Of a DNA stretch of 64,000 nucleotides, positions 551-64,000 are shown one piece after another. Position 1 is the first letter of the stretch; each line of letters begins with the position of its first letter. The DNA comes from a virus, in the IMG/VR virus record IMGVR_UViG_3300046474_000239, positions 1 to 64,000 of that record, one strand, 5' to 3'. The position numbers and the translations under genes were made by a program. The notes under the pieces were generated by a model, which worked only from the letters and a program-made list of their open reading frames with translations, did no database searches and was not told the origin of the DNA.

Positions 551-2260
551 ATGACGCTACCAGCTAGGCTCAAGGGTTGCATGATGCTGCCGATGAGCGA
601 GATAGATGTACCCCGAGTTAAGAAGCAGGTGACCTACAAGCACAGGCCACTCAGCCTGGCGGATGGTGAGCCGGACCTGGAGGTGGTCGCCTGGTACATC
701 GACGGTGAGTACCTTTGTGTACCCCGGCAGTACGGAATGACGCTGTGCAATCAATTGCACCTGGAATACGTGGACGAGACGAGCACCGGAAAGGTGGCTC
801 ACTTCCCCAAGATCCCGGACCCTCGGGAGTACCAGGTGCCGCAGCTTGAAGAGATCATGGCCGAGTACGACACGGCCTATGACTTCATCTTCAAAGCGCA
901 CACGGGTTGGGGCAAAACGGTTGGTGCATTGATCGTTGCGGCCAGGCTCGGGCGGACCACGGTCATCATCGTTGACCAGGAGAACCTCCGACTACAGTGG
1001 GTCGAAGCGCTGACCACGCTGTTCGGATTTGCAGAGAAAGACATCGGCACCATCAAGGGCGACAAGTGGAGCTGGAAGGGCAAGGCGGTAACCGTGGCCA
1101 TGGTGCAGACCCTGGCGCAGCGCGGAGTCGACGAGGAGCTTGCTGACTACTTCGGCTTCGCCATCGTGGACGAGGTGCACACCTGCGGAGCCCCAACATT
1201 CAGCGCCGTGCTCCTCATGTGGAACGCGACGTACCGCCTGGGTGTCTCGGCTACGCCTAAACGGAAGGACGGCCTACAGCGCGCCCTGGACCACAACCTT
1301 GACAAGATCAGGGTGGAGGCCAGCAAGAAGCACAATCGTTCGGCGGTGTACCTGATCCGCAGCGAGACGGTCTACAGCTTCTACGGCAACGTGAGCAAGA
1401 TGACCGGCCGGATCTTTTCGGAGATCGCTGAAGACGGCCCGCGTAACCTGCTGATCGCCGAGGCAGCGTTGTGGCTTTATGAGTCCGGGCGGGACGTGCT
1501 GGTCCTGTCGGATCGCATCGAACACCTGAAGGAACTGGAATGCCTGCTCTACTATATGGGAGTGGCCGAGGAGGAAATGGGTCTATACACTGGCTACGAC
1601 CCGGTATGGAAGTTCGCAAAGGACGCCAACCCCTCTGGCCGACCTGAAGGTCTTGAACGCTGGAGGAGAGAAGACCGGGCTTGGGAACAGGCGGAGTATT
1701 GCGCTGTCTCAATGCAGATCGTCCAGAAGCGAGTACCCAAGCAACGGTTCGAGCACATCAAGAAGCACAGCAAGATAATCCTGGCTACGTATGGGATGTT
1801 TGCAAAGGGTGTAGACGTTGCAAGACTTTCTGGCGGGGTAGACGCGACCCCTCGCAGCGCGGCGGAGCAAGTCCATGGCCGTATCCTGCGCGAGGTCGAA
1901 GGCAAGCCGGTGCCGATATGGGTCACCTTGATGGACACCAACAGCTACAGGCTGATGTTCACCCTGGCAAACAGGATCAAGGAGTACCTGAAGAGCAGCG
2001 GCGTACTATTCGAGTGGCATCCAGACGGGAGTGTCGAGCAATGCGACGTAAAGAACCTGAAGAGCGAGATCTACGAGAGGGTCGACGACCTGAAATCGCA
2101 GCGGATCGCAACAAACAAAGACGGACTCAATACGCTAGTGACTCAAGCGGACGAGCAGCAAAGCAAGCGGACCAAAGACAACGATATGGTAGCGCGGTTC
2201 AAAAGACGGCCGCCCCGCCTGCCGCCGCCACGCTCCGGCGCGGAACGCGGAGAGAGGTAG
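551..2260 (+). CDS. Superfamily 2 DExH helicase (UvsW/ResIII-like)
   Basis: Motif I AHTGWGKT, motif II DEVH, motif III SAT, motif VI QVHGRILR; ATG 551 after GGAG. Confidence 0.9.
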   Translation: MTLPARLKGCMMLPMSEIDVPRVKKQVTYKHRPLSLADGEPDLEVVAWYIDGEYLCVPRQYGMTLCNQLHLEYVDETSTGKVAHFPKIPDPREYQVPQLEEIMAEYDTAYDFIFKAHTGWGKTVGALIVAARLGRTTVIIVDQENLRLQWVEALTTLFGFAEKDIGTIKGDKWSWKGKAVTVAMVQTLAQRGVDEELADYFGFAIVDEVHTCGAPTFSAVLLMWNATYRLGVSATPKRKDGLQRALDHNLDKIRVEASKKHNRSAVYLIRSETVYSFYGNVSKMTGRIFSEIAEDGPRNLLIAEAALWLYESGRDVLVLSDRIEHLKELECLLYYMGVAEEEMGLYTGYDPVWKFAKDANPSGRPEGLERWRREDRAWEQAEYCAVSMQIVQKRVPKQRFEHIKKHSKIILATYGMFAKGVDVARLSGGVDATPRSAAEQVHGRILREVEGKPVPIWVTLMDTNSYRLMFTLANRIKEYLKSSGVLFEWHPDGSVEQCDVKNLKSEIYERVDDLKSQRIATNKDGLNTLVTQADEQQSKRTKDNDMVARFKRRPPRLPPPRSGAERGER

Positions 2261-2271
2261 AGACCGAGGAC

Positions 2272-2559
2272 ATGGACCACCCGATGACCGTTGAGAGTTA
2301 CACCATCCCGGAGGCAGCCGAGGCGATTGGAAAGTCCCTCAATACCTTCCGACGCTGGATCGACGATCAGATGCTACCGGAGCCGTACCTCCGCGATACC
2401 CAGTCAAACTACAGGGTGTACAGCCGGGGCGAGATGGACATCATCAGTGAGGCTTTACGCAGACACGCGGAGGAGTTCTCCTACTTTAGAGCGGACCACT
2501 CAACCGTGATCCACAACATCAATCAACGCATCCAGGCACATCGCTCGATGCACGTCTGA
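2272..2559 (+). CDS. MerR/excisionase-like winged-HTH DNA-binding protein
   Basis: YTIPEAAEAIGKSLNTFRRW...NYRVYS pattern; ATG 2272 after GAGG. Confidence 0.8.
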   Translation: MDHPMTVESYTIPEAAEAIGKSLNTFRRWIDDQMLPEPYLRDTQSNYRVYSRGEMDIISEALRRHAEEFSYFRADHSTVIHNINQRIQAHRSMHV

Positions 2560-2566
2560 GGTCACC

Positions 2567-2956: not shown

Positions 2957-2968
2957 GGAGCAGGGAAC

Positions 2969-6178: not shown

Positions 6179-6318
6179 GCCCGATGCAATCAATTGCACG
6201 AAGTAAAAAATCGCTTGTGAAGGTTGAAACTTAGTTAGGCCACCCCTACTATCCAACTCGCGAGCTGTTAAACCTCACCACGGCAAATCGCCACCCAATC
6301 ACTCGGAAGGTCACGACC

Positions 6319-7788
6319 ATGGCAAACGCAAAAGCAAAAGCTAAACCCGCCCAGGCAAAGGAAGAGGCGGCACCGGAATTCGCAGAAGGCTCCTGGGTCC
6401 GCTTCCTCGGCTACGAGAAGGGCACCAAGAAAGAGGAGATGATCCTCAACAAAGACGAATCGTACGAAGTCGTCGCGCTGCCTGGCGAAGAAGAAGTTGA
6501 CGGCGACGTGATCCAAACCGGCTACGTGCTGCGTCTGGAAAACCCGGACTTCGATCCGAAGAAGAAAGAAAACCCGGACACCAACCCTAAGTTCCTGGAA
6601 ACCGAAGTGTTCCCGGAAGAGATCGAAGCGGGCGAAGCGCCGGAAGGCGAAGGCGATGCGATCACCTACGAAGAGCTGGCCGCGTACAGCAAAGCAGAGC
6701 TGCTCGAATTCGCCACGGCGAACGAAGTCAAGCTGACTGCCGCTCAAAAGAAAACCCCGGAAACCTTGCTCGCTACCCTGGCCGCAGAATTCGGCCTGGA
6801 GCCAGCAGCCGAAGAAGAAGAGCCTGAAACTCCTCCGGCCAAGCCTGAAACCGCTGCCGCGAAGAAGAAGCGCGAAGCCCAGGAAGCTGCCGACGCTAAA
6901 GCAGCCAAGGCCAAGCCACCGACCGCAGCCGAGAAGAAGGCCGCAGCAGCCGCCGAAAAACTGGCAGCCGCCCCTAAAGGCAAAGCCACTGCCAAAGGCA
7001 AGGCCCCGGCCGCGCCGAAGGACGAGGAAGAAGAAGTCGACCCAGACTTCGTGCCTGAACTCGAAGGCGAAGACGAAGCGGTCCTCTCCCTGGTCGAAGG
7101 CGACGTTGACCTGGTCGCGGTAGCCCAGGACCTGGAATCGGCGGTTGCCGTATCCGAGTACCAGTTGGGCGGCGTGCTGTACCACATCAAGAAAGAAAAG
7201 CTGCACCTGGCTACCGACAAGAAGGGCAAGCTGCTCGATCCTGAATACGGCGAAACCGGTGGCTTCAAGAAGTTCCTGTTGGATAACTTCAACATCGACT
7301 ACCGCAAGGCCACGTACCTGATCGACATCTACATCAACTTCACCCTGGCCGGTATCGAAAATCCGTCCGACGTGGTTGGCCGTATCGGCTGGACCAAGGC
7401 AAGCAAGATCGCCAAGCTGGTCGGTGTCGAAGGCGCAGACGTTGACGGTCTGGTTGACGTAGCCGAGAAGAACACCGTTGCGGATCTGTCCGAGATCATC
7501 AAGGAGCAGTTCTCTCCTGAAGGCGGCAGCGACAAGCCACCATCGGCTACCCGTATCACTCTGCGCTTCCGCTACCTGGAAGAAGAAGCCAACGTCTTCG
7601 AAGACGCGCTGAAAGAGCTGGCTGACCAGTTCGGCCAGAAGCCTGAAGAAGCGTTGCTCCAGTTGGTCATCGACGCACACGCTCGCGAAGTCTCGGGCGC
7701 TGGCGGCCACAACCAGGAAGAAGAAGAGCAACCGGCCAAGGGCGGCAAAGCAGCAACCAAACCCGCTCGGGGTAAGGCTCGCGCCTAA
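6319..7788 (+). CDS. Large acidic and Ala/Lys-rich protein, probably abundant and DNA-binding
   Basis: Strong codon bias, own terminator, HeH/Rho-N-like segment YSKAELLEFA, AK-rich linker, helical C-terminal domain. Confidence 0.75.
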   Translation: MANAKAKAKPAQAKEEAAPEFAEGSWVRFLGYEKGTKKEEMILNKDESYEVVALPGEEEVDGDVIQTGYVLRLENPDFDPKKKENPDTNPKFLETEVFPEEIEAGEAPEGEGDAITYEELAAYSKAELLEFATANEVKLTAAQKKTPETLLATLAAEFGLEPAAEEEEPETPPAKPETAAAKKKREAQEAADAKAAKAKPPTAAEKKAAAAAEKLAAAPKGKATAKGKAPAAPKDEEEEVDPDFVPELEGEDEAVLSLVEGDVDLVAVAQDLESAVAVSEYQLGGVLYHIKKEKLHLATDKKGKLLDPEYGETGGFKKFLLDNFNIDYRKATYLIDIYINFTLAGIENPSDVVGRIGWTKASKIAKLVGVEGADVDGLVDVAEKNTVADLSEIIKEQFSPEGGSDKPPSATRITLRFRYLEEEANVFEDALKELADQFGQKPEEALLQLVIDAHAREVSGAGGHNQEEEEQPAKGGKAATKPARGKARA

Positions 7789-8627: not shown

Positions 8628-8636
8628 GGAGGCCCT

Positions 8637-10193: not shown

Positions 10194-10202
10194 GAGGTCC
10201 CC

Positions 10203-10418: not shown

Positions 10419-10444
10419 TGCAATCAATTGCACGGAGAAACGTC

Positions 10445-14188: not shown

Positions 14189-14189
14189 C

Positions 14190-16465: not shown

Positions 16466-16497
16466 TTTACGTGCAATCAATTGCACCGGAGAAAAAC

Positions 16498-18710: not shown

Positions 18711-18738
18711 ATGCAATCAATTGCACGGAGGCTGTGAC

Positions 18739-26744: not shown

Positions 26745-26796
26745 TGGTGCAATTGATTGCACGGGCAGTAACACTCGACCTACAAGGACCTGCTAA

Positions 26797-28390: not shown

Positions 28391-28792
28391 TGCCCACACA
28401 CCCGCACCCACACACGCATCCAGAAGGAGCGAACCCGTGGACCCTAAGACTCAGTGGCGTCACAAAAGCAAGTTAAAAGAACTCGCCAAGATAGAACGCG
28501 GGATCCTGAAGTCTGTGCGTCGAGCGCAGCGCCAGGCTGATTTGATAGTACCCAAGGCGCTAGCCTGGATACCGATACCGTATGAAAAGCCGGAACCCAT
28601 AACGGCGGTTATCCTGGCGCGCCGGGCCTGGTATGAGGCGGGGGAAGTGCGGACCATTCCCGTTACTACCCTTTGCCGGGCGATTGCCCTTAATGAGGCG
28701 CAGAGACTGTTAAAGCGCGAAGGCTTCACGCACTGCACCGTGCTAGATGTTTATGAGGGACACCCCGCGTGCAATCAATTGCACCAGGATCT

Positions 28793-34700: not shown

Positions 34701-35844
34701 CGGTGGCGCACGCAAGATTGGCTTTACCCGTAACTCGTGGCAGGAAAACGCCTATGACCTGGGCTTTAACGCGGAGTACAAACGTCAGGTATCTTGCCCA
34801 GCCTGTGCGGCCGGTGTGCCTCTCGCTGCTCCGGTGCTCGCCAAGGTTGTCGGTGGCCCGGACGACGGGAAGGTCGTACAGCTCACTGCAAAGGCTGTGC
34901 AAGCGATTACACGCACGGCGGGCGAAACGCTGGACGCTGGACGCCAGGCACACGCCGCACAGGTCACACGCATGGCGACGGAACATCGCCGGGCGGATCG
35001 TATCGACAGAATGACCCGTGGCTACATCGCAGCAGCACTGGGGAGCAGTGGCGGGACCACACCAGAAGGCGAGGAGCTGGAAAGTCTGGAGGGCTACGAG
35101 TTCAGTGATGAGTCGAAGTCGAAAGCCTGGGGCATTTGCGCGGCCTTCTATGACCGCTACACGACAGACGTTAATGCCTACGCTGGCACGTACAAGCCTG
35201 GCAATGGTGCGGATCCTTACGAGCACGCCGGTCACGACCTGTGGCTCACCTCCGGCGGTCACGGTGTAGGCTTCTGGGATCGCGGCCTGGGCAACCTCGG
35301 TGATCGACTGAGCAAGGCGTGCGGCTTCCGCACAGACTTCCCGGAGAAGTGGGTAGACATTGGTGATGATCACTACGTCCACCTGGACTGATGCAATCAA
35401 TTGCACGGCGCTCGAAACCGGGCGCCTTTGAGGAGTTAACGCCATGTCTAACGACAGCACACAAAAAGCCATTGTAAACGCCCGCCAGGCCCTGGCAGAC
35501 CTTTACGCAGATGCCTGCATAGCCCTGGAAGCTACGGTATCAAAGGAGCGGGTACAGGCTGTTATAGAGAAGCGCACAGACCAGGCTGGCGCGGCTGAAG
35601 CCGGGGCGGAGCTGGCCTTTGCTTGCCTCATTGCAGCGCAGAAGCGTAGCAAGCCTTCGGGGGTTGAACTCACAACCGAAACCGAAAGCAACGCGGGCGG
35701 GTACTACAGTCGAAAGGCAGTAGGGCAAATGATTCGCCGGATCCGCGACAATATGCCCTAGCCTGGGTCGGTGTACATGGCGCTCCTTAGATGGGGCGTC
35801 TATGCTTCCAATACACCCAAATCACCCACAAGGGGATAGACATG
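28793..35844 (+). promoter_or_regulatory. Eight repeated promoter-leader units (CTGGCG-like N17-18 TATNCT-like ... TCACCCNNAAGGGGAT)
   Basis: -35/-10 starts at 28799/28823, 29044/29067, 29422/29445, 29876/29899, 31741/31764, 33060/33083, 34178/34201, 35777/35801. Confidence 0.8.
34150..34168 (+). terminator. Terminator hairpin
   Basis: AGGCCC-GAAA-GGGCCT then TTG. Confidence 0.65.
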
Positions 35845-37039
35845 CAAACCATTCTTTCAACGTCGCAAATTGAGACACGCCTCGGTGACATTTACAGCAC
35901 CGCGTACATCACCAAGCCCACCAGTGCCGAGTTGCACGAGCGCCTGAATAACTTCCTGGCGGAGTTGTGCGAACGCACGCCGGGCGGTCGTCGTCGTTAC
36001 AGCGTGGAAACAATCGGATACGCCCGTGGTTATGCCCGTGCCCTGGACAACCAAATCATGCGCGAGCAAGTGGAGTTTGTTTACCGCTCTTTGCACAGCG
36101 GGTATATCTATTCGACTCACAAGCAAAGCACCCACAAGTCCACTGAAGAGTTCTACGAGAAGGGCGAGGGTGCATTGTTGGGCGAGATGGAAGCCGCGCA
36201 CGTATGGAAAGGCACCGACAAACCGTTTACCCCGTGGAGCGTACCAAACCAGGACATGCGCGACCGCCAGGCTGTGGCATTGGCTAAGTCGGATTCCCGT
36301 TATAGCGTCCAGAGTTACGGCCTGGCGTTTAATGGCAAGGGCTGGGCCTTCCTGTGGCTCGATAAGGTTATGGGAAGCGCGGACACCGAAGCGGCGGCCT
36401 GGCTTCTGGCGGCAAAGCATAAGGCAGAACGTGACGCCAGTTTGAGCGACCCGGTAGCGCAAGGCTGGAAACCCACCAACGCCGAAACCCTGGCGGAGGT
36501 TCAACGTGTCGTCGCTGCTATCGGGCGGGACACCCTGGTCGCTGATGTTTATGATGAGCGCTCACAGGTATCAGATGCCCTGGCCCGTGTACCAGGCTTT
36601 GAATACCCGGACTGGTCACACCTGACAATGGGCGAGGCGGAGACCCGTGCTCGCAAGATCCTGGGGGGCGATAATGGCAAAGGCTAAGAAGCGGGTAAAC
36701 ATTGATCGTGTGGAGCCGGGCGGTAATGTCGTCCGGTACATGACTGGAGTAGAAGAGGAGAACGCACACCGAATCATCCGTGACGTGAATCAAAGGGAAG
36801 GGGAGTTGGTCATATCCTCTGTACCGTACAAGCGCTAGACTAGGATCCACACAAACCAGCAAAGGAGTTACCAGGATGAAAGCGATAACACTCGTGGCAC
36901 GTAAACTGATGCTAGCCATTTACGGGCGGCCAGTTGAACCAACGGCAGAAGAGAAGGAGAAGGAGCAGAAGGAATACGAGCGAGTGTTGTCTATCCTCTA
37001 GACCTCGTGCAATCAATTGCACCGACTCACCCATTAATC

Positions 37040-37071: not shown

Positions 37072-37975
37072 CGGGCGGAGCAGATACCAGGATCCTCTAT
37101 AGGGAACAATCCACTATCACCAGGTACACACGCCAGGATAAAACGGGCGGACACTCTACACACACCTATAGACAATCCCACTAGGGAACATAGAACACAC
37201 CAGGACCATAGCAAAGGTTTAGACGGGCGGATCCTGTAGAGTTTCGGGCGGACCAATATGCAATACCCTATAGACAATAACCATAGAGAGAATCATATAG
37301 AGATAAACAGTGTAGAGAACCGATCTAGTGTTTCATTCTCTATCAGTGTTTTCCCAGTGAACTATTTCCCGCAAAAATTCTCTGGTGATTCAAGTTCAAT
37401 TCATCGGTGTCTATCCGTGTCTAGTGCTGCTGGTGCTTGGGTTAGTGTCTACGTCACGCTAACTGGTGCTGCTGTACGCTGCTGTCATGCTAATGCAGGC
37501 CCGTTTGTGTTATCAGCAGTAGTGGTGGAGTTAATGTTCTCTCTATAGGGGATAAATGACATCGACCGCCCGTAAACCCTGGGTACATGTTTATTCTCTC
37601 TATAGGGAGCAAGTGACATCCCGCCCGTGTTTATTGGTTCTGTGTGGGCATGCCGCATTCATAACTGGTCACTGCTGGTGTTTCCTCTCTATAGGGCGTA
37701 ACTGGTATCCGCCCGTGCAATTGATTGCACTGGTGTGGGCATGTGACGCTTACTACTGTCGTCACTGCTGGTGTGGGCACCTGGTTTATACAACTGGTGA
37801 GTGGTGGTGGTCATGCGCGTTTCATGACTGCTGCTGGTGACGCAACTGGTGCTGGTGTCATAACTGGTGCAACTGGTGTCACTGCTGCTGGTGTCATGAG
37901 TGGTGGTGGAATTCTCTCTATAGGGCTGTGGTGGTATTCCGCCTGTGAAACCTGTGCCTGTGTGGGCATGTGCTA
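37072..37975. repeat. Non-coding locus of inverted bipartite repeats around an AT-rich core (candidate origin or packaging site)
   Basis: Four TCTCTATAGGG-N12-15-CCGCCYGT units (37537, 37594, 37683, 37912) and three reverse units (37072, 37143, 37245). Confidence 0.7.
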
Positions 37976-38158
37976 TTTACTACTGAAGTCACTGCTGCTG
38001 TAGTTGTCCTGGCGCCGTGCAATTGATTGCACCGACCTGGATCCGTGTTACACCGCTCCGAAGCACGTCAAATGCGTGCCAGAATCGAGCTGAAGCACGG
38101 CAAATACGTGCCAGATACACCCCGGATCCGCGCCTATATAGAAGGGCTTCGAAACCGC

Positions 38159-38215: not shown

Positions 38216-39536
38216 TACCAATACCGAAACACAAACCACACACAAGGAATACCGACATGACCACCATTCAGATGTTCACCGGCATTGCAGTAATGGCTAT
38301 GATCGTTTTCGCAATGGCCTACGCAGCTTGGAACAACTAACAGTTAACCGCAGCCCACGTCACCCATAAGGGGATCGAATCATGAACGCAGTAGCTCACT
38401 ACCTCGTATACTCGAAAAACACCGGCTTCATTGTTGCGAAGTTCACAACCGAGGCGGGAGCTATAGAGTACTGCGCAAACAACGCCGGAACCCGTTGGAC
38501 CTATCACCGCACCGATAAAGCCGTGCCATACGGCTGCTAATCCAATCAATCGCCACACGTTACCCATAAGGGGACAGATCATGACCACAGTAAACACTCC
38601 CGAAGGCATATCGTATTTTCGTTTCGCCTCACTCAAAGGCCAACTCAAACTTGAGTCGGTAGGCCTGAAAAGTTCTAGCGGCGCACTCCGCCCACAACTT
38701 GCGAAAGAGTTCGGCCTTAAACCCCGCGCACCACACGCCGACTACATCGCCTATTGCATTGCGCGCATGAATGAATTGATCCCGCGCCAAGTTGTATAAT
38801 GCAATTGATTGCACGGGGCGGAAACGCCCCACACCCAAACTAGTAGAGTGACCATCATGTCTAATGCACCTTATGACAAAGTTGACGCGGCCTATATCTT
38901 TATCGGGTTGCACGCTTCTTATACTAACGCGGCCAATGAGGAGGAGAGCGACAACGGACCTATTGCGCAGTTGATTGAACACCACAGCGGAGAATGCCAT
39001 TTAATGGCTTTCATGTTCGAGACTTCCATTGCCGCAAGTAAGGCGATTAGTTCAATAGTTGACTTTGACCGGGCGGACCTCGGGATGTTCGCCTATGACC
39101 ATCTCGACAACGCAGAGCCGGGAAGCCTGATCTATGCCCTATGGTCGGCGTGCGTACTTGAGCAGAAGGACCCCGCAGGCGTAGTTAAAGCGTGGGTTGA
39201 TGCAATGGGCTGGCCTACGATAGTCAAAGGGCGGGAAGTAGTTCAAGTAGTAGACTCCCCGGTAGTTAGTATTCAGATTCAAACCGTCCAGATTCAACCA
39301 CGCGACCAAACCGGCGACGATGCGCAGGTAGTAGCTAGCACTAGCCCCAATGCAACCCATTGGTCTGTATATACGCGCAGTACCGAAGGGCGGGCGCAAT
39401 GGGTTGCGGATTTTGCCGTATTGCCCGGCGATACCGGACAGGCCCGCACCGCCGCGCAGATGCTTGCGGACAAGCTTGCAGCACAGTACGGGGTATTTAT
39501 CGAAGCCATTAAGTAGAACGCCCCGCACGCACGTTT

Positions 39537-39632: not shown

Positions 39633-39685
39633 CTAAATACCGGGTAAGGCAACCGCCGCCCACATCACCCATAAGGGGATACATC

Positions 39686-40186: not shown

Positions 40187-41631
40187 CAGTAAGGACCGGG
40201 GCGGGGCGGATAACGCCCCCTCTCACACGCCAGTAAGGAGTTACATCCCATGTCATGCCTACATGTACCCGGCCTGCTCCACACCGCACAAGCGGTCCCA
40301 TTCACCTATAACGAAGCATGCGCGGCAGAGCGTAGCATCATGGGGCGTTACACACGCACCCACCTACGCGCCACCCTGCTAGCACGCAAGGCCATACGTC
40401 GCGCCCTACGCGCTGCTATAGAGGGCGGGCACTACCTGCAAGCTGTAGAGCAGGCGCACCTGCATCACATCCTAGGCGTACAGTCGGTCATGCTGATCCG
40501 TCGCCACGCACGCACAGCCAAGTAAGGGGACTGCCATGCAAACCACCACACGCGACACCATAGCGCTAGCCATGGCAGCCTTTGAACAATCGGGCGGCTC
40601 TATTACCCAATGCCCTACAGGGGAACACAGCCCTACCTATGACGCTGCATTCAAGCGCGCACTAGACCGCGCACAGTATGGATGCGCATGCGGTTGTAAG
40701 GGGGATTGGACAGAACACAGCATGCGCCTAGGCGAGCAGGGTATACGCTAACCGCGTGCAATCAATTGCACCAACTAACGGGCGGGATATGCCGCCCTTC
40801 TTATATAGGGGCTACATCATGACTATTCATATCGTTAAGCGCAGGGCTACATGCGGGAAGAGTACTAAGCGCGTACGGGGTAGAGAGTTCGCTAGCATGC
40901 GCACACACGCAAACACACAAGTAAGGCGAGTACTCATTGCATACTCCCCTTATGACAAGATGCGGGTATGTCGGGGCGGGGACTACCAGACAAGGTACGC
41001 CATATACAGAATGTCGAATAACCAACTAATGCAGTACTAAGGGGTAGACCATGACCTATGTATTCAGAAGGCTAGACGGGCGGTTAGATTACATATACCG
41101 CAAAGGCCTACCATTCAGAGAGCGCACAGCACCATCAGTAGTCCGTCGCCTTACACGCATCACCCGCCGTATGCCTATCCACTACAGAAGCATACGCGAA
41201 GCAAAGGCACGCATTGATCAGGCGTGCAATTGATTGCACGGACTCACACGCGAAACGGGCGGATAGAATACCCTATCCACCCATAGGCAATACCCATGCC
41301 AGTACACAGAAAAATCCACCATAGAAAGTTTGGTGAAACGACAATACCGTGCGCCGGACATTTTTTATGGGTACGAGTTTTGATTCCATGCTACCTAGAT
41401 TCTTCGTCTACATTGTTTATCGTGCATCCAGCAATCACTCAGGTCATGACAAGAACATGTCAGGTATTTGAGAGAGTCACGAGAGAGACAAATACAAACT
41501 CACACCTGGCGTGCAATTGATTGCATCAGCGATGTCAAATGTCGGTGGTTAAAAATCTTCGGGGTGACCAGGGTATAATGAGCGTGCAAGGGCATAACAA
41601 TGAATGCCCAAAAATCGAAGGGGTGATCGCT

Positions 41632-44600: not shown

Positions 44601-47600
44601 GCCTCACGGCCCTAACTGCCCCACGCGCAGGTAGGCATCGGTGTCGGGTGCAAACGCGATACAACTTGTAGGACAATGCAAACACCACCTAAGCCAAACA
44701 ACCAAAAGGATCAAGATGATGAAACGCACCCGACTGAACTACCTGGACGAATGGGGCAATGTGGTCGCAGAGCTGTCCCGCGTTCGCAACGTCCCAGCCA
44801 AAGGTGACGACGTGATCATCCACACCCTGGAAGAGGAGATCCCTTGCTCCGCCTCCTACGAGGTCATGCGCCGCACCTGGAACGCTGACGGTAGCGAAGT
44901 CGACGTGGTCGTCTCCCGCCAATCCCCTCTCGTTCCTACCTCCACCGCAGTATCCGAAGGCGAGGAGTAAGCCATGGCGCGGCTCACCCGGCAGAAAAAG
45001 CACCAAATCCGTGGGGTCCTGAACAAGGCGATGGCTGCGAGGATCCGCACCACCAACGCCGCTGAAGCGCTCACCAGCAGCCCGGATATGCCCGAGGCTA
45101 CCGAGGACGAGCTGGCGTACGCCCAGAACTGGGTCAACGTCACCGCAGCAATGGTCGGCCGCGAGGCCACTGCCGAACCAGAAGGGTCCTGAATATGACT
45201 GATACCAAATACACCATCGAGCTGAAAGAGATAATCGACCTGGGCATTTACTCCCGCGCAGAACGCACCATTCACCAGCTACTCAAAGGCCGCATCCTGC
45301 TGGTCGTCCGCACCTCCGACGAGTTTGATCACGGGCGGCGGGCGGCTCCAACATACCAAGCTTTGAGCGCTGAGGTGCTCGGGCAGCCAGGCTTCCTCAG
45401 CGATGCTTGGTTCGACACCCGAGACCAGGCTATCGACAACTGGGTACGCAGCATTCATGGCGTGGGGATGGCCTGGGTGCAGACCAAGACGGTCCAGGAC
45501 GTACTCAGCCCGGATGCAATCATTCACAGCAAGGCCCTGTTCGTCTACGCCCTCCTGCTGGACACCGACCCGGACATGGTGACCAGGCTCCTGGACAACA
45601 ACGGCTACCGAACGGGTTCACTGTAGCTAGTCAAAGGGATTCGACTTTAGATACATTCAACTATGAAACTCTAAAGGAACCCTCCCATGTCCACCAACAC
45701 GTTCGCCCTGGCACTAGAGGCCTTCGCCCTCCTCTCGATGACACTGTGTTTCCTGCGGTACACGCAAGTGCCGGGAAGCTCGCATTGGACCGTCTGGGAC
45801 TTCGTCGGCGCGGTCTCTCTTGGCATGGCGATTCTCTGCCTGGCTTTGCTGGCGCTCACCGTTCTGGCGATGTTCGGGTTCATGTAAGGAGTCCCCATGG
45901 AAGAGTTTTTCAATGCCCGGCCGGGCCTCGCCATTGCCTCAGTATTGTTCTGGGGCATGGCCATTTTCGTGGTCCTGGGGATGCTCGACGGGCCTGTCCG
46001 CAGATGGCGAAGAAGTATGATGTCAAGGTTCTGGGCCTGGAACGACCGCAAGTACGGACCTAAGGGCGGCTTGACTGTTGATCCGCCACCTCCGGCCAAT
46101 ACAGTCCCGTTGATTAGGCAGCGTCCCAATATGCGGGGTCCGGGCGGCCAGGCAACCCTCCACCTACAGGATCGCCGAGTCCAAAGGGTGCCCAGGTTCT
46201 TGGGCGTCGACATCCCGCGAGGGGTCGTGATGGAGACAAACCCCGGCATGCCTAACAGATACGGGCTCAGGTTCCCCAGGGGCTTCTATTTGCCGCGAGA
46301 AGACCAGCGCCGTCTACAGACCCGAGCTGGTAACGCCTTCCACTTCGAGGTCTTCACCGACCAGCGCACCCAGAGCACCTTTATCAACGTCACCGAGCAA
46401 CTGTCTCTGGAGTTCATGGCCGACTCCCAGGAAGGGCGCGAATACCTGTCTGAAATCGTTGCCGAGGTGTGCAGCCTGTATGCGGACTGGGCCATCGGCA
46501 AGGCAAACGCCCAGGTGGCCGACAAGGTTGAGAAGGCTGAGAAGCCCGTGGTAGAGCCTTCGCGGAGTGTTCGCATGCGCCAGCGGCGGGCGGCCAGTGT
46601 AGAGAGACAGAGTAGTAACAAAAGCGATACAGTTGACCCATCAAAACAGGAGAAACCTGATGAACAATGACAGCAAACCCTTGTACCTCAGTGACGTGCA
46701 ATCAATTGCATTGGACGTTTTGCAAGCCCAAGTCGGCGCCTGGTTGCTACAGATGTGGGGTCCGCTTTCGGCGGGCGATGTGCCTGAGCGTGTTCAGCGC
46801 TTCCAGGAAGAAGCCAATGAGCTGTGCCAGGCCATGGGCCTCACCCGCAAAGAGGCGCACATGCTGGTCGAATACACCTGGGACCGCCCGGTAGGTGAGC
46901 CGCACCAGGAAGTGGGCGGAGCGATGACCACCCTTGCCGCCCTTTGCTTCGCGTCAGGCCTGGACCTGCAAGCCGCCACGGCAGCAGAGTTCAACCGCTG
47001 CAACGGCCCGGCCGTGATGCAACGCATCCGCGAGAAGCAAGCACTCAAGCCGAAAAGCAGCCCGCTCCCAGGGCCTACCGAGATCGACTGGGCGGCAGAG
47101 CGAGAGCTGTTCCACCAGCGCCACCCGATGCCTGAAGGCGTAATCCTATACAACAGCCCCAGCCTGCGTAATGCCGCGTACGGCTACGAGCACGTACGCT
47201 GTATTTCCGCAGCGATCAGCCACGACAAGCTGTGGTTCGGGTGGCGGTCCTGCGTGGAAGCTCACCAGTAATGCGCTACGTGATCTACAACAAACTCAAG
47301 CCTTGGTATTCCTGCGCCGAGGTTTGGACCCGCGACGGAACAATCACCGCCGCAACCCGCGCTTATGAGTGGGCAGTAGGAAAGGACGTTGGTTACCTGG
47401 TTGGGTGGGCCAGCGATAACGGAAGAGTCTGGATTTGCGAAGGCGCGGAGACTGCGCCGGGGGTGAACCATGAAAGACACAGCACTGCAATCACTGATGG
47501 ATCAACTAAAGGGAATTTGGGAAGGCAACGAATCGCCTACAACGCTGCATGGAAAGGAGTTGCAGCCAGGCGGGTTCCGGGCGGGGGACTTCATCCTGAT

Positions 47601-50396
47601 GGTGAGTACGCCCCAGCCAAGCGAGAGGAGCAAGACCCTCCCGCCCGCGATCATGATGCACGTAGTTAAGGGGCGCCTGGGCGGTAACGGCCAGTACCTC
47701 GTCAGGCCAGACAGACTGATCGACGCCCTGGACAGCATCGCCGGTAACCTGCCAAAAGGCTTTACGCGCATCTTCAAGGAGGGCGAGCAATGATGATCTA
47801 CCTAACTGCCTTCTGGTTAGCCGCCCTGTCGGCTTTCTTCAAGGGCTTCCAGCACAAGAACGTGCTGCACAGCATGTATTGGTGGGTCGCCGCGACCAGC
47901 GCAGCCATCGGGGTAGGTGACGCCTTCATGGTCAAGATGGTGTACGACAACCATTGGAGCCTGGGGCTCTGCACAGGGCTAGGAGCGGCCCTGGGGATGG
48001 TGGCAGCTATCTACGTCCACGGCAGATTTGTTATGCCGCGTAAGGAAGTCGTAGGCTAAGTCAAGTCTGTGTCTTAGGACAGGATCTAGCCAGGGTTATA
48101 AAATGGCCCTGTACAACGGAAAGTCAGAAGAGGTGCAACGATGCCGTATCTTCCTGCAATACTTGGATTGATTCTTTTATCCCTTCTTGCAACATGTTCG
48201 ACGGCCACACTCAACCTACCCTCTATCCAGATCACCACCCGCCAGTGGGACCATGTTTTCAACGTAGCGCTGGTCTTGGGGCTCCTTGCCCTGGCCGGAC
48301 TTGCCACTATGTTCTACCTGGACTGCATCGCGACCCCTCGCGTGTACCGATACCTCTAAGGAGACTCATGATGTACGCACTAGCCCTACTCCTGCTCAGC
48401 GCGGGCGCCGGACTCTTACCGGCCCTGATCTACGTCATCGCTCAGATGAACCGGATCCGCGCACTGTACGGCGCTCCGCGCCAGGACAACGCCCCGTACT
48501 ACAAGGCGTCGGAAAAGGCACTTCGCCGCTTCTACGTTATCTGGGTAGTCGCGACGATCCTGCTACTCCTCTGCCTGCCCAGCTCGGGCGCCTTCCCTGA
48601 TACCCGCTACTAAGGAGAGCCATCATGGAACTTTTTCAAATCTACGGAACCTGGTACTTGGGCATCGTGTTGATTGCTATGTCACTCAGCGCGAGAATCG
48701 GCAACGCCGCAGGCACACTGACCAGGCGTGGCAAGGTGCAGATCGCGGTAGGGTCATTGATCTGGCCGATCATGACCGTGGTCATAGTGGGCACGTTCGT
48801 AGTCCACCTCCTGGCATCGGTATTCGCGGGGCGGAGTGCGCCAAAGCCCAAGAAGATGGCACCGGCAGCAACGAGTGACCTAGACCCCACGAACCTCCTG
48901 ATTATGCTTGGGGTGACGAACACCAAGGATGGGGAGACCGAACTCCTGAGCCTGTACAGCGAACTGGAGAAGTCCCTCAGCACACTGCGAACTTACGCCC
49001 AGGGGGTGGCCGAGATCCGCCATGGACAGCTTGCCCTTTCGACGATTGAGGCGATCAACCGGGCGCGGCTTCAGAAGATGGAACAGAGGAAGGAGGCAGC
49101 ACGTTGAAGGTACTGGTTGAGCTTATAGACCTTTCGTTGCGGGTGGCTGGGATGCTGGCGCTGTGCGCCCTGGCCATACCCGAGAAGAACCAGACGGCAC
49201 AGACAGTTCACGCACTGGCCGTCACCCTCCTGACCTGATGCAATCAATTGCACGGAGCGAAACATGGCTAAGTTAGGGACCAAATACTTCACGCGGGGCA
49301 AGGTGATGATAGGTATCGCTGCCGAAGGCATTAACCGCCCGCTGATCCCCTTCGATCCACGGGTGGACAAGATTGACTACTGCGAACTGACCAAGAAGTG
49401 CGAGGGCATCACAGCCGTACAAGCTGAGGGCCTGTTTGCCGACCTGGAGAAACACTTCATGGGGCAGGTGGCTACCGAGTGGCTCAAGCTGCCGGGCTTC
49501 GTGGACCTGGCCGACACCCGCAAGATCCGTGTATTGAACGAGGAAGTGGCATGAGACAGTTCCAGCTCCACTACGACGTGGCGATCCTGATTTACACGCT
49601 GATCGCCGGGTACTTCATCTTCGCGGATCCGATGATCGACCGAGCCATAGCCAAGGGGTTCTTCTTCCTGGCCTTCCCGCTCATCCTGTCGATCTACGTC
49701 CGCCCCAAAAAGGAAACCGTGTGATGCAACTCCCCATCCCCAGAGAGATCAGCGTGAGCCTGGACAGCGAGGGCTTCGGTGTTCGCTTCGAGAGCTTAGA
49801 TGAAATGGCAGTCATCGCCCTTGCCAGCAACTACTCCCGCCGCAGCGGTCTGCGCCATGTGGGCTCTTGCCGCACCACCACCTGCAACATCACCCCGGAG
49901 CCAAGCAACGTCGAGGCAGACCTCGGTGTACCTTCCGCCCACTTCATGTTTTTGGTATCACATGTAAACCTGGAGTTCGCAGGCAACCGGGAGCCGGAGA
50001 CCACCACGGTCTACCGCACCCTCACGTTCAAGGCAGGAACCGAGGAGCCTCAGTGGCTCTATCACTTCACCGTAGAGTTCAAGTAAGGAGAACGACATGA
50101 CCTGGTACAAATGGATATGGTGGCGTTTCGCGTGGGGCCTGAACTGGGGCGGCGAATGCAAGGACTGTCATGGCCGCTGGAAGGCGTTCGGCTATCTGAA
50201 CATTCTGGTAGAAAGGCGTGTGTCGTACCCAGTGGGCGAGCCGAACCTCTACAAACAGGTCTACCATGAACTCCGCAATCGTGGTTTCAGCCACGATGAA
50301 TGCGTGGACATCGCCGCCGACGCCCTTGAGGCATACGGCAGTCACCGGGCGCTGTCTCACAACCAACTCAACGACATAATCGAAGAGGTTTCCTGA
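41632..50396 (+). other. Dense run of about 30 small accessory CDS, several membrane-associated (e.g. 41632-41835, 41841-42065, 42092-42382, 42384-42629, 42657-42893, 42890-43138, 43142-43453, 43820-44122, 44119-44634, 44716-44970, 44974-45192, 45195-45626, 45687-45887, 45897-46670, 47470-47793, 47790-48059, 48141-48359, 48368-48613, 48625-49107, 49264-49554, 49721-50086, 50097-50396)
   Basis: Tightly packed, translationally coupled + strand ORFs with RBSs. Confidence 0.7.
46660..47271 (+). CDS. MazG-like nucleotide pyrophosphohydrolase domain protein
   Basis: ERVQRFQEEANELCQA...GEPHQEVGG. Confidence 0.6.
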   Translation: MNNDSKPLYLSDVQSIALDVLQAQVGAWLLQMWGPLSAGDVPERVQRFQEEANELCQAMGLTRKEAHMLVEYTWDRPVGEPHQEVGGAMTTLAALCFASGLDLQAATAAEFNRCNGPAVMQRIREKQALKPKSSPLPGPTEIDWAAERELFHQRHPMPEGVILYNSPSLRNAAYGYEHVRCISAAISHDKLWFGWRSCVEAHQ

Positions 50397-52103: not shown

Positions 52104-52355
52104 ACCTCGTGCTGCTCGACACGCTGTTCGCGCTGGTCAAGATGCTGTACTTCCTCAGCGCCTGGGAGGTGGCCACGTCGTCCGTGGCCATGATCAGCAA
52201 GCGCCAGTACATCCTGCCTATCCTCGCTCTCTGCGTACTGCTCGTCCTAGACCGGTACGTCCCATAGCCGTGCAATTGATTGCACGAGCATCGGTGGTTC
52301 TGACTTCCTAAAAGCACAGCGGTATACTCCAGGCACCAACCCAGGAGTAACCGCC

Positions 52356-55300
52356 ATGAACCCAGGAAACGGCTTTGTCCAGATTCGTTACGGCCTCGTA
52401 GAGCCGGGCGATAAGATCTACATCCCCACCATCGGCTCCCACGTAGAAGTGGAACAGGACTCGATTTTCCAGGGTTCCTCGGTTGCCGCCCACAAAGCGG
52501 TTTGGCGTGCGTCCCACAGGGTCAACGTCTCCCCCTCCTTTGCCAGCTCCACGGAGCGCTGCGACCACGTCAGCGAGCTGGACCATTGCGTTCTGCGCCA
52601 GGACGGCTACTACGACCTGCACCGCGTCGTGGTTGGCAAGGACAACGAGTTCGTCTACCTCCGCCCGGTGGCGCAGGCAGGGGCCTCGGGCCGGACCAGC
52701 ACCACCACCAACAAGGTCTGCCGCCGCACTGGCAAGGCCTGGAAGTGGGACGAGACGGGCTGGACCGGCATGCCGGGCACCGAGCTGCGGGCGGAGGGAG
52801 AGATAGGTTTCCGCGTGAGCGCCCCTACCGCAGACCCAGTACGCAGCTCCGCGTTTTACGGTGATTAAGATGACAGAACTTGAGTTTCGTAGGGTCTACG
52901 ACTTCAGGCTGGCTTACGACCTCCTGATGGGCTTTACAGCCCCGCGTATTTCAGGGTTTGGAGACCAAGACACCGCGCCAGACACTGACTCGGTGTTCTA
53001 CACCCAAGCGAGGGATCGCCTTGTATGGCTCTTACTATCGCCTTACGGCCTTACGGTAAGAACAAGCCACCTAGCATTGAGAGAGCTTTACGACTTGTAC
53101 GACGAAGCGTTACTGGCTGAGCTGCTCGTGCTGCGGGACATAGCACGGGAGGCTGCAAGACTGCGCCGCCAGGAGCGTGAAGAAATCACACCTGGTCGAC
53201 CCTTCGCCCCGCCCCAGTCGAGCCCGGACTTCCGCAGGGTGGACCAGCAGCGCCGGGAGGAAAACAGGCAGCTCCGGGCGGAGGTAGCCCGCACCCGCCG
53301 AGCCGCAGACCCACCCCAGATCCGCAGAGGTAACGAGCTGCCTACACGCGGTCAACCCGTACCACCTGTACCCGTCGAGGCGGTAGACGCTGACTACGTC
53401 AGCCCGCGCACCAGGGCCGGGCGGATAGCTCGCATTAACAGGCAGATCAACTCCCTGGAGCAGGAGCACGAGGAGGACTACTTGCTACCTCCAGCAGAGC
53501 GCGCTCGCCGGGCGGGCGAGATGGTGGACCGATTGACCGAGTTTGCTCAGCAGCTCGAAGACCTGGGACACGACAGCAGCAAGATGAGGAAGAAACAGTC
53601 CAAGACCAAGAAGGTGACCGAGAGGACCAAACCTGAACCGAAACCAAAGGTCATCAAACGTCGACTCACTGTCGGCAAGAAACGTCCATCAGTGCCGCCG
53701 CACCAAGAGTGACCGTGCGGTAAGCTGAACCCATAACCACGAGGAGCAACACCATGCCAGTAATGAACAACATCTCCGACGTGCTGACCTTCGTAGGCAG
53801 CCAGGACGCCCGCGCCGTGCCGATCAAGTTGCCTATCGGTTTCAACGAATGGAGCGAGGCCAGGAAGCAGCTCGAAGAAGACAACGCGGAGTTTTTCACC
53901 ACCGCCGACCCGGTCCCGGTTGACGCCCAGATTTGCGCGCTGTGGACCGAGAACGGCAAGCGCGGCTTCATGCTGGTCCAGGAAAACCCAAAGCGCTACA
54001 TCTGCACCAACTGGCTGAAGAACCTGGTACAGCGCCCGGTAGAAGCCCCGATCCCTAACCTGATGCGTCACCAGATGCGCCAGGCCTTCAAAGGGAGCAA
54101 GTGATGGATAAGCCAGACAATGCGGTCTTCGAGACCTTGGGTCAGGCCTTCTCCACGGTGGCCACCTGGTTCATCGACTTCCGCCACCAGCACGTACACG
54201 CGGGGCTCAGCCTGGTAAACCAGGGCGATGCCTCGGAAGGACAGCTCGTGCACTGGGTCTGCGTCGAGCACTCGGACAAGATCCTGTACACCATCGCCCG
54301 CATTACGCCGATCAGCATGCCGCCGCTCGACGGGAGGGAGCGCTGGAACTGGCGAGTGGAGTTCCGTCAGCCCGGCGAGATCATCTCTCTGGTATTCGAT
54401 AACTACGCCCGCGCCTGCGGCCGGGAGCGGTACACCCGCAACGAGGCTATCCAGGCCTTCGAGGACCACAACCAGGAGTTCCACCCAGGTGCAACGCTTA
54501 GTTTCACCGCCTCTGCACCGGGGCGCACAGTGGTACGGCGGAAAGCTGACGAAGGGGCATGGCAGGTGGTTTGCGGGGTGATCCTCGACGAAGCCGTCAT
54601 CCAAGGCCTCAAGATAACCAAGCACCCCCAGCGCGGGATCTTCGAGAAGGCCTTTGGCATCGACATCATAGGGTGAACCATGCAAGCGATTAAGCGAGCG
54701 TTGCAGCGTCTCAGGCTGGCCCTGGCGCCGGTCAAGCCTGTGAACAAGGTGGGCAAGCTGGGCCTGTGGGAGCGGGGCGAGGTGATGGACTACGGGGACT
54801 GCTTCGTAGCCCACATCACGGTCAATGGCACCCCAGGGGCGGTTATGGTGCGAGCCCCCACCAAGGCCTCAGCCGCAGCCCGCCGCGACCTGATAGTCCA
54901 GACGATGATGCAGGAATCCCGCGAAGAGGCGGCGGTGCAATTGATTGCACGAACCTCCGGCGACGAGACCGTAAACCTGGTGAAGTCAAGTCAGTGAACA
55001 TGGGCGCGCGGGCGTCTATTAGGTAAACTTCTTGGTATGTTCACCACAACAATTCAGAGGAAAGACCATGGACCCCAAGGCCCGTCTTGAGAAGAACTTC
55101 GCATCTGCCATCGTGGGGATGATGGACCGCAGCTACTTTCCATCCACCCTGCTTTGGGTAGAAACCAACAACCCTCGCGTGCGCGGCGTCGACCGGGACT
55201 GGCAAGTCTTCCTGCATGGCGTGGAGAACGGGGCCAAGGCCTCCCTTGAGCGGATACAGCCCACGATTGAGCGTGGCGAAGACGCCGTTGTAAAGTGCTT

Positions 55301-60804: not shown

Positions 60805-60823
60805 CCGTGCAATTGATTGCACC

Positions 60824-62877: not shown

Positions 62878-63479
62878 CCGCCCAAGTCCGCATCGTCCAG
62901 CGAGATGATCGGCAGTTCGAGCAGGTAGTATTGGCCGAGCTGCTGGTCCCCTACGTGCCGAACTCCTACGGTGATGTCTACACCCCGGAGGCCATCAAGG
63001 AGTTCTGCTACACCTTCAGCCAGAAAGGCTTTGGCCTGGACGTTGACCACGACGGGGTGGACGTTGACGGTAAGCAGTACATCTTGGTCGAGAGCTTCAT
63101 CGCCCGCTCCGGGGACCCAGACTTCATCGAAGGGTCCTGGGTTGTGGGAGCGAAGATCCTGGACGCAGCCCTGTGGCAGCGCATCCTGGACGGCGAGATC
63201 AACGGGTTCTCCTTCGAGGCCAGCGTGTTCATGATCCCGGTTAACCTGGAGTACGACACCGATACATGGATCGTCTCCGGGCTGACCGAACCTGATCCTT
63301 TTGATGGACATACACACACATATACGGTAGTTCTAGGACCCTTGAACGGAGTAATCTCTGGTGGTACAGGGGTAACGGACGGGCACTCGCACTCGATCAC
63401 GGGCGCCACGGTGACCGGAGAAGCTGCCGGACACACTCACCGCTACCAAGTAATTGAGGACGAGGACGATGAGATCTAA
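62874..63479 (+). CDS. XkdF-like prohead protease domain with a His-rich C-terminal module
   Basis: YGD......I, DVDHD, VESFIA, GSWV, W..I..GEINGFS; DGHTH/DGHSH/AGHTH. Confidence 0.75.
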   Translation: MTAQVRIVQRDDRQFEQVVLAELLVPYVPNSYGDVYTPEAIKEFCYTFSQKGFGLDVDHDGVDVDGKQYILVESFIARSGDPDFIEGSWVVGAKILDAALWQRILDGEINGFSFEASVFMIPVNLEYDTDTWIVSGLTEPDPFDGHTHTYTVVLGPLNGVISGGTGVTDGHSHSITGATVTGEAAGHTHRYQVIEDEDDEI

Positions 63480-64000
63480 ACGAATCAAGCGGAGCGCCAC
63501 GGTGGAAGGAAACCTCGTCACCGTCGATGACCCAGCGTTCATTACCCTGGTGAAGAAACCAGCCAACCAAAGAGCTTTCGGGATTCTCCGATCCGCCCAA
63601 GAGGACGACAACGTGAGCAAACCAGCATCCAAGCGCGTACCGCGCACCCGGCGTAGCGAAGGCGCCGACAACCTCGTCCGCATCAGCCTCCCCGGTTCCC
63701 TGGATGAAGCTGGCGTGGCTGAGACTCTGGCCTCCTACGGCCTGGCCAACTTCACCGTTACCCGCAGCGAGGATGACACCTCCTGGGTAGCCCAGAACCC
63801 AGGTGCAATCAATTGCACCGACGTGACCACGGTCAACCTGGCTGACGGCATCGTGGCGCAGATCAAGCGCACCGAAGAGACCGAACCAACCGAAGGTAAG
63901 ACCAAGCTGACCGTCGTGACTCTGGAATTCGATGCAGGTTCCTTCCCTGACGCAGCCTCCTGCGCAGAATGGTGCCAGCGGAATTCTGTTGACTTCGATG
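63469..64000 (+). CDS. 5' part of a scaffold/protease-associated head gene (3' truncated)
   Basis: MRSKRIKRS...FITLVKKPANQRAF, reads open to the window end; overlaps the previous stop. Confidence 0.7.
   Translation, partial: MRSKRIKRSATVEGNLVTVDDPAFITLVKKPANQRAFGILRSAQEDDNVSKPASKRVPRTRRSEGADNLVRISLPGSLDEAGVAETLASYGLANFTVTRSEDDTSWVAQNPGAINCTDVTTVNLADGIVAQIKRTEETEPTEGKTKLTVVTLEFDAGSFPDAASCAEWCQRNSVDFD

Follow-up and report, generated by a model that had tools for sequence, protein, structure and literature searches.

What is a short palindromic word, repeated at nearly regular intervals, doing along the chromosome of a large phage? This question is raised by the IMG/VR virus record IMGVR_UViG_3300046474_000239 (whole genome 104,448 bp, designated G000), the first 64,000 nucleotides of which are the stretch analyzed here site by site (the window). 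An exact search of the window recovered 23 copies of the 14-bp near-palindrome TGCAATCAATTGCA, compared with 0.00 copies in 100 dinucleotide-preserving shuffles. On the + strand, 15 of these copies have a CA centre and eight have a TG centre. A first-pass annotation of the same DNA, made from the sequence alone, had listed 23 invariant cores in both orientations and had described the word as AT-rich within a GC-rich genome; both statements hold, the G+C content being 36% for the word and 59% for G000. The two-mismatch copy that it placed at 24492 is present at 24493. Extending the exact-match count to the whole genome, a check that the annotation had proposed, raised the total to 31; read on the + strand, the centre is CA in 18 of them and TG in 13. 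Besides these 31, there are only two copies with one mismatch and two with two mismatches, implying that the 14-mer is close to all-or-none in G000. The flanking bases widen the word to an 18-bp near-palindrome, cG-TGCAAT-CA-ATTGCA-Cs.

Purifying selection on the DNA word itself is supported by comparison with G003, a relative with 65-78% protein identity to G000. All 13 sites that can be aligned between the two genomes lie at orthologous places, including four inside genes, although the flanks are only 67-76% identical; the earlier proposal that selection acts on the DNA and not on the protein is therefore upheld. The accompanying remark that in-gene copies are read in different frames is also correct, as all three frames are used in the window (CNQLH, VQSIA, AINCT), the frame of the copy at 54936 depending on the choice of open reading frame (ORF). 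Across 14 genomes, 176 of 412 sites (~43%) touch or fall between genes, and non-coding DNA amounts to ~9%. Among these junction sites, 100 of 176 begin in the interval from -20 to +10 nt relative to the end of the preceding stop codon. The same placement had been noted for the window, where four copies begin 0 nt past a stop codon and five, each preceding a ribosome-binding site (RBS), end 11-15 nt ahead of an ATG (Table 1). Over half of all sites are in genes, where the frame xTG CAA TCA ATT GCA is favoured. The distances from site to gene start are broad rather than fixed, and in long gaps the site lies near the upstream stop, not the downstream start. No base beyond the word and its adjoining 2 nt is conserved within 45 nt on either side, which indicates that there is no fixed promoter architecture. 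The spacing is more even than chance allows: the coefficient of variation of the gaps is 0.38-0.64, compared with ~0.97 under a random or junction-aware null (p<=0.004 in each of 12 genomes), and in G000 the sites are spread over the whole genome without an origin-type cluster.

The related phages also carry the motif, which the first-pass annotation had named as a check. The exact 14-mer is found 20-50 times each in many 93-101 kb IMG/VR contigs and 26 times in the cultured Stenotrophomonas phage DLP5; the core proteins of the phages that bear it are ~30-45% identical to those of G000, and their G+C contents range from 47% to 62%. PA_L9, a closer relative, has no exact copy and instead contains TGCAA-RCGY-TTGCA about 28 times. 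Further dialects are seen in G030 (TCGA, TCAA and TCAG centres), G022 (TCAA, TTAA and CTAA centres), G027 (CAAG/CTTG centres), G024 (TGAAAT-CA/TG-ATTTCA, 31 copies), G031 ((T/G)GCAAT..ATTGC(C/A)) and G021 (mixed TGAAAT/TGCAAT arms). Rhizobium phage L338C contains 52 copies of TGCAAC-NN-GTTGCA with a free centre, and the other distant cultured carriers are phages Aeromonas HJ05 (24 copies), Vibrio SIO-2 (14), Vibrio PG28 (12) and Rhodobacter RcZahn (10). Taken together, the dialects of the relatives and of the distant cultured phages define a family word, TG(C/A)AAY-NN-RTT(G/T)CA, which a very large set of phages of 80-120 kb maintains at intervals of ~3 kb even though protein sequences pay for it. 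The feature is genuine, under strong selection and very widely distributed. The literature searched contains no paper on the word or its dialects, and the papers on DLP3/DLP5 and Samunavirus do not mention it. One article retrieved (PMC13326640) concerns an Acinetobacter phage that merely shares the name DLP3 and is irrelevant.

Host chromosomes, for which a count had likewise been proposed, are without word arrays in the bacterial genomes sampled, except for two islands linked to integrase genes. When one genome per bacterial species was scanned, the word was met almost only as single hits in unrelated taxa, and in a gammaproteobacterial sample it was present in one or two copies in 16 of 400 genomes and clustered in none. 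The first island, in Paraburkholderia elongata 5N (G020:C163:47.3-64.7 kb, duplicated on C293), has ten exact copies within 18 kb, and the 11-Mb genome has the word almost only there. Its copies stand in the sense orientation upstream of operons and are separated by cassettes encoding an ADP-ribosylglycohydrolase, a 1441-residue NOV_C protein, a Sel1-repeat protein and paralogous small genes, which look defence- or immunity-like. No protein common to the phages and this island was detected by tblastn. The second, in Comamonas testosteroni SWCO2 (G019:C10:161-166 kb, near TilS and aspartokinase genes), has four exact copies plus variants within 5 kb, and in one of its ORFs the N-terminal 50 residues (XkdF-like start) are matched by the phage gene that lies after the one for the prohead protease. 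This island is probably a satellite or a prophage remnant of the clade. A P4-type tyrosine integrase adjoins both clusters. Both islands appear to be integrative and are possibly satellites of the phage clade whose words would be read in trans.

The arms of the word are two-fold symmetric, and in G024 both are altered together (TGAAAT..ATTTCA). The first flanking pair varies by genome (G..C, C..G or T..A), and the centre varies by lineage (TCAA, TCGA, TTAA, RCGY or CWWG), being free in L338C. Symmetric arms with a tolerant centre are as expected of a dimer on double-stranded DNA. The explanation that we favour, at about an even chance, is that a symmetric phage-encoded protein docks on the word in double-stranded DNA; from these sequence patterns we infer that such a protein binds the word, which protein it may be and what its binding would do. 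Each half of the protein would contact one arm, TG(C/A)AAY, and the two central base pairs would be contacted weakly or only via DNA shape. Sites kept about every 3 kb would let the protein reach the whole chromosome. Gene junctions, with their few non-coding bases, would be the preferred places, and sites that have to fall inside genes would use the frame of lowest cost. Each site would serve as a specific anchor, from which the protein may coat, bridge or silence the nearby DNA, and in relatives, where some sites are found 4-12 bp ahead of sigma-70-type promoters, it could also gate transcription. The array most likely works in the manner of KorB/OB on RK2 or RacA/ram in Bacillus, by analogy with those systems. 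The first-pass annotation had also proposed that a dimeric phage protein binds the sites to organize the chromosome; conservation, symmetry, spacing and scarcity in hosts all fit such a protein, of which the binding and the organizing role are putative.

Four candidate readers had been named for the window, and the strongest gain is seen for a MerR-type winged helix-turn-helix (HTH) protein of 95 residues (Table 1). It gives weak matches to Pfam MerR_1/HTH_17, belongs to phrog_19880 (transcriptional regulator) and has a homologue, gp059, in DLP5, and its long-form homologues exceed the Pfam MerR_1 cut-off. The family has hidden Markov model (HMM) matches in 14 of the 17 clade genomes and profile matches in four of five distant cultured phages, and the protein is the only HTH found with a fixed clade-wide place, between the genes for the SF2 helicase and p129/UvsX. 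Its most divergent members occur in G024 and G027, the genomes with the most divergent dialects. An AlphaFold model (predicted local distance difference test score, pLDDT, 77) shows the MerR-type order strand-helix-helix-wing-long-helix, and its best fold matches are all MerR regulators on DNA, RacA (5i44, 5i41) or BldC, with weak E-values of ~0.01. On the grounds of predicted fold and synteny, this protein may tentatively be regarded as the reader, at a likelihood well short of even. The clade-wide place and the MerR/RacA fold favour the suggestion of the first-pass annotation. The co-occurrence of the gene with the motif is imperfect, as it was not detected in the complete genomes G021 and RcZahn.

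The other three candidates fare less well. The 6319-7788 protein, which has a site upstream of its gene, is conserved in 10 of 13 relatives and has no recognizable DNA-binding domain. The HTH of TerS is not conserved clade-wide. The ParB-domain proteins are weakened by the distribution of ParB_N (PF02195, E<=0.001): G000 and 12 of 16 relatives have it, and the search did not detect it in three complete genomes with at least 20 sites each (G021, G031 and G032), where very divergent domains may have escaped. The ParB-like protein encoded at 7854-8627 has GHTR at the place of the CTP patch, where canonical ParB has GERR (CTP-binding arginine patch GERRxRA). As a separate observation, the stretch 7854-11176 encodes this ParB-like protein, a ParB-methyltransferase fusion and a second S-adenosylmethionine (SAM) methyltransferase directly upstream of TerS/TerL.

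Several observations weigh against a symmetric protein docked on the word, or against the candidate reader. The centre has a polarity: the hybrid, that is, not perfectly palindromic, centre (CA or TG in G000) is aligned with genes at 205:96 overall and 91:39 at junctions, and the sense bias reaches 29:1 in G004 and 21:1 in G008. Perfectly palindromic centres are avoided in most genomes, the centre being hybrid in 31/31 copies of G000 and 27/29 of G027. The recognition helix of the MerR-like protein varies among phages with an identical word and core proteins only ~30% identical, and the missing detections of its gene concern genomes with 23 sites (G021) and ten sites (RcZahn). No homologue of this protein was found in the two integrase-linked islands with exact word clusters, so that these islands would need reading in trans. 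Possible reasons for the avoidance of palindromic centres are DNA shape, escape from restriction or a polar role of the site. The polarity is treated as secondary because the CA/TG centre is reversed at 3 of the 13 orthologous sites of G000 and G003 and the orientations are near 1:1 in several genomes. A switch of orientation at the 37-kb repeat locus was also considered and rejected, since the best circular two-arc split fits 24 of 32 sites and permuted labels do equally well in 24% of cases (p=0.24); regional clustering of orientation was not significant in any other genome examined.

A related idea, which seems unlikely, is that the word is a "self" mark of the whole phage chromosome, with the loaded protein covering or bridging the DNA between sites. 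Phage DNA, together with that of satellites copying the word, would then be recognized as distinct from that of the host, be it for protection, modification, recombination-dependent replication or packaging. If true, such a mark would be a phage-wide counterpart of centromere and nucleoid-occlusion site systems, common, in dialects, to 80-120 kb siphoviruses of Alpha-, Beta- and Gammaproteobacteria.

Somewhat less probable still, the word could be the recognition site of a DNA-tracking enzyme, that is, a nickase, a recombinase, a Chi-like brake of a helicase-nuclease or a modification enzyme that loads there. Such an enzyme would account for the all-or-none character of the word (31 exact against four near copies), the even spacing would give full coverage, and the asymmetric centre, with its sense bias of up to 29:1, would supply polarity. 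Genes for a helicase, a Cas4-like exonuclease, UvsX, two resolvases, a ligase and ParB-methyltransferase fusions lie nearby, and the satellite-like islands bear the same word. The DNA of the cultured relative DLP3 resists 15 restriction enzymes (PMC7326821), which implies that DNA in the clade is modified. Such an enzyme is difficult to reconcile with a centre that reverses at orthologous sites of close relatives, is used at ~1:1 in several genomes and is free in L338C; moreover, no nickase or serine recombinase is found among the annotated proteins, and ParB_N is not universal.

A self-contained transcription signal bordering transcription units is improbable, whether as a compact promoter used by an RNA polymerase that the phage redirects or, like the L5 stoperators, as a polar roadblock or terminator. 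Its appeal lies in the sense-strand bias of the centre and in the sites placed right past stop codons and 10-25 nt before start codons. The site also keeps its place before the downstream gene where additional genes have been inserted ahead of it, and in the islands the sense-oriented word lies upstream of operons. Sites often abut intrinsic-terminator-like hairpins, and in some cases the site is the only sequence between terminator and RBS (18712 in G000, 6375 in DLP5, 69760 in G004). The hairpins lie on either side for both orientations, and a fixed link between site orientation and the neighbouring terminator was rejected for this reason. In addition, over half of the sites are in genes, about a third point the wrong way, no base is conserved at a fixed distance, the start distance is not fixed, and the preference for the upstream stop in long gaps is not that of a start signal. 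No phage RNA polymerase or sigma factor is found among the annotated proteins, and symmetric arms are not expected of a promoter. A promoter class read by sigma-70 or by a single-subunit polymerase was rejected on much the same grounds: a third of the copies are antisense, over half are in-gene, flanking conservation is absent and start distances are broad.

In relatives, sigma-70-type promoter boxes do accompany part of the sites. TTGACA occurs within 30 nt downstream on the sense strand at 29 of 535 sites, where ~3 would be expected and where each of the other three arrangements gives 3; most of these boxes lie 4-12 nt past the site, with either orientation of the centre, in relatives with TTGACAA-type promoters. 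G000 has almost no TTGACA-associated promoters, and a sigma-70 promoter scan of its 32-50 kb region gave no more matches than in shuffles. As an observation on the clade, G001, G002, G030, G031 and G032 have dispersed sigma-70-type promoters, TTGACAA-N14-TGTGnTAnnnT, at 16-30 per genome, whereas G000, G003, PA_L9 and DLP5 have almost none, indicating that promoter usage differs within the clade.

An RNA hairpin with a stem of 5-7 bp and a 4-nt loop, bound or cut by a protein between cistrons for message processing or stability or for tuning translation, is quite improbable. Such a hairpin would account for the sense-strand bias and for the placement just past stops and just 5' of the RBS. The arm change of G024 (C3/G12 to A3/T12) preserves pairing, and the flanking pair switches in a complementary manner between genomes. 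The predicted stem has little stability (-2.5 kcal/mol for the 14-mer alone, -7.6 when the flanks are included), the covariation of flanking pairs within genomes does not exceed column composition, and no Rfam family matches the word. What is invariant is the sequence itself and not only its pairing, the loops follow a two-fold DNA symmetry (YYRR, RCGY, CWWG), a third of the copies are antisense, over half are in genes, and most copies in G031 have a broken outer pair (T..C). A structured RNA element, such as a repetitive extragenic palindromic (REP)-like or processing hairpin, was therefore rejected on the invariant sequence, the use of both strands, the weak stem, and the lack of within-genome covariation and of an Rfam match.

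The weakest alternative is an operator of a host regulator of the LacI/GalR type, e.g., PurR or CytR, borrowed by the phage or titrated by decoy copies. It would explain the identity of the word among phages that have only ~30% identity in their own proteins. The PA_L9 dialect TGCAARCGYTTGCA fits the LacI/GalR operator consensus, TGNAANCGNTTNCA, at 10/10 fixed positions and the G000 word at 9/10, and TGCAAC-NN-GTTGCA resembles CytR half-sites. It is nevertheless very improbable, as only 16 of 400 gammaproteobacterial genomes, a sample that may not include the true hosts, have one or two copies and none has a regulon-like set, in the 11-Mb Paraburkholderia genome the word is nearly confined to a single island, the dialects track phage lineage and no obvious host split, a decoy needs neither even spacing nor junction placement, and no LacI-type HTH (PF00356) was found in any of the six frames of G000.

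Among known systems, a symmetric protein docked at dispersed sites has its closest parallels on plasmids and bacterial chromosomes. The OB operators of the IncP plasmid RK2 number about a dozen. KorB, a member of the ParB family, is a dimeric global regulator, with promoter-proximal OB 4-10 bp upstream of promoters and others distant (PMC11790492), and the present array resembles it in having a palindromic word of ~16 bp scattered over a mobile genome with a subset near promoters, which in the relatives means 4-12 bp ahead of the -35 box. It differs in that ~30-50 sites are evenly spaced, over half are in genes, and ParB_N was not detected in three complete genomes. A multi-copy palindromic site of 14-16 bp is shared with the ParB/parS class in general, whereas a ParB on every motif-bearing replicon is not found. 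In Bacillus subtilis, RacA, a protein with a MerR-like winged HTH, binds ram, a 14-bp palindrome with TG/CA ends, in 25 chromosomal regions and compacts the DNA (PMC4914108). The phage word is likewise a 14-bp palindrome with TG/CA ends, and the candidate reader is predicted to have a MerR-type fold. However, ram is G+C-rich and clustered around the origin, whereas the phage word is A+T-rich and evenly distributed along the entire genome. The phage protein has 95-165 residues, and RacA carries a long C-terminal coiled coil through which it binds DivIVA; the relation indicated is one of shared fold.

The stoperators of L5 and Cluster A phages, bound by the gp71 repressor, are dozens of 13-bp words, mostly in short intergenic gaps and with an orientation bias. 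The phage word is similar in its dozens of copies through the genome, its placement in gaps and its orientation bias. In contrast to the stoperators, which are asymmetric sites of a monomeric repressor in a temperate phage, it has symmetric arms, flips at orthologous sites and lies in genes in over half of the cases; nor is it a one-way site, the ratio in G000 being 18:13, though 29:1 in G004 and 21:1 in G008. By these comparisons, the array belongs to none of the ParB/parS, stoperator and LacI-operator classes. Noc/NBS, MatP/matS and the P1 C1 operators are also dispersed words of 13-17 bp with one reader and a replicon-wide task. To our knowledge, none of them has been reported evenly spaced at ~3 kb over a phage genome or with dialects common to phages of Alpha-, Beta- and Gammaproteobacteria.

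Site arrays with one reader are known from plasmids, bacterial chromosomes and one group of mycobacteriophages. The carriers described here include therapy candidates against Stenotrophomonas and Pseudomonas as well as cultured Rhizobium, Vibrio and Aeromonas phages; with cultured members and a named candidate reader, the question is open to immediate bench test. Knowledge of the reader's task would reveal how a large phage manages a chromosome in its entirety, and possibly in what way satellite islands take advantage of this. In addition, the word provides a simple metagenome marker for the clade and its satellites.

The sites of the window and the candidate reader are collected in Table 1. 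The 127-bp terminal overlap of the record suggests a circular assembly, and nearly all genes are on the + strand. The window encodes the SF2 helicase, the small HTH protein (part of the replication/recombination module), UvsX/RecA, RusA-like and RuvC-like resolvases, a Cas4-like exonuclease, ParB-like and ParB-methyltransferase proteins, TerS, TerL, ThyA, an ATP-dependent ligase, dCTP deaminase, PhoH, ribonucleotide reductase and RNase H. DnaB, PolA, a DnaG-like primase and an AAA+ ATPase are encoded outside the window. Among cultured phages, the nearest are Samunavirus members from Pseudomonas (SM1, PaMx31, PA_L9), with TerL 72% identical.

Table 1. Copies of the palindromic word in the window and the candidate reader gene; + denotes the CA centre and - the TG centre on the + strand for site copies
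Feature	Coordinates	Strand	Context	Counterpart in relatives
Site copy	746..759	+	CA centre, inside SF2 helicase gene (530-2260), read CNQLH	Kept in G003 as TGCAATCAGTTGCA
Best candidate reader (fold, synteny)	2272..2559	+	95-aa MerR-type winged HTH, between SF2 helicase and p129/UvsX	
Site copy	6185..6198	+	Intergenic; 6 nt past resolvase stop, 120 nt before gene 6319-7788	Kept in G003, centre turned to TG
Site copy	10419..10432	+	Intergenic; 0 nt past stop, 12 nt before methyltransferase ATG	Own dialect at this junction in PA_L9, upstream of orthologous gene
Site copy	16472..16485	+	Intergenic; 6 nt past ligase stop, 12 nt before dCTP deaminase ATG	Kept upstream of dCTP deaminase gene in G003 (one mismatch) and PA_L9
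Site copy	18712..18725	+	Intergenic; directly after terminator-like hairpin with T run, 13 nt before ATG	
Site copy	26748..26761	-	TG centre, intergenic; 3 nt past stop, 35 nt before next start	
Site copy	28770..28783	+	Inside ORF 28437-28886, read CNQLH	
Site copy	32716..32729	+	Intergenic; 15 nt before ATG at 32745	Exact copy at orthologous place in G003
Site copy	33876..33889	+	Inside ORF 33794-34132, read VQSIA	
Site copy	35392..35405	+	Intergenic; 0 nt past stop, then G+C-rich hairpin	
Site copy	37008..37021	+	Repeat-rich, probably non-coding stretch 36.9-38.0 kb	
Site copy	37716..37729	-	Repeat-rich, probably non-coding stretch 36.9-38.0 kb	
Site copy	38018..38031	-	Intergenic, early small-gene region	
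Site copy	38800..38813	-	0 nt past stop, then G+C-rich hairpin	
Site copy	40757..40770	+	5 nt past stop, then terminator-like hairpin 40780-40797	
Site copy	41225..41238	-	Own internal TGA (TG orientation) is stop codon of ORF 41051-41233	
Site copy	41512..41525	-	Own internal TGA (TG orientation) is stop codon of ORF 41296-41520	
Site copy	46697..46710	+	Inside ORF 46660-47271, read VQSIA	
Site copy	49239..49252	+	0 nt past stop, 11 nt before ATG at 49264	
Site copy	52271..52284	-	Intergenic; 3 nt past stop	
Site copy	54936..54949	-	Inside one of two overlapping ORFs (54680-54997 or 54766-55026)	
Site copy	60808..60821	-	3 nt past stop, then terminator-like hairpin with T run	
Site copy	63804..63817	+	Inside gene after prohead protease (63469-64902), read AINCT	Exact copy at orthologous place in G003

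Some local features of the window are worth recording. Compared with PA_L9 (77492-77517), G000 has an insertion at 13976-16465, consisting of a small ORF, ThyA and the ATP-dependent ligase, between TerL and the palindrome ahead of dCTP deaminase; the palindrome remains with that downstream gene. The stretch 37072-37975 is repeat-rich and has no convincing gene, with three palindrome copies within or adjoining it, and the ORFs around the copies at 37008 and 37716 are doubtful for this reason. It contains four direct units with TTCTCTCTATAGGG (37532, 37589, 37678, 37907), in which CTATAGGGAG matches the core of a T7-type promoter, as well as related units in the opposite orientation at 37165 and 37267 and 18-nt tandem repeats at 37827-37909. 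The stretch might serve as an origin or hold a group of early promoters. Farther downstream, a 30-nt repeat ending in CACCCATAAGGGGA(T) lies just 5' of the start codons of three small early genes (38346-38375, 38546-38575, 39651-39680), and a related AGGGG-N6-ATG block is found at 38569, 39674 and 40807; this pattern suggests either a sequence tied to start codons or an early promoter combined with an RBS.

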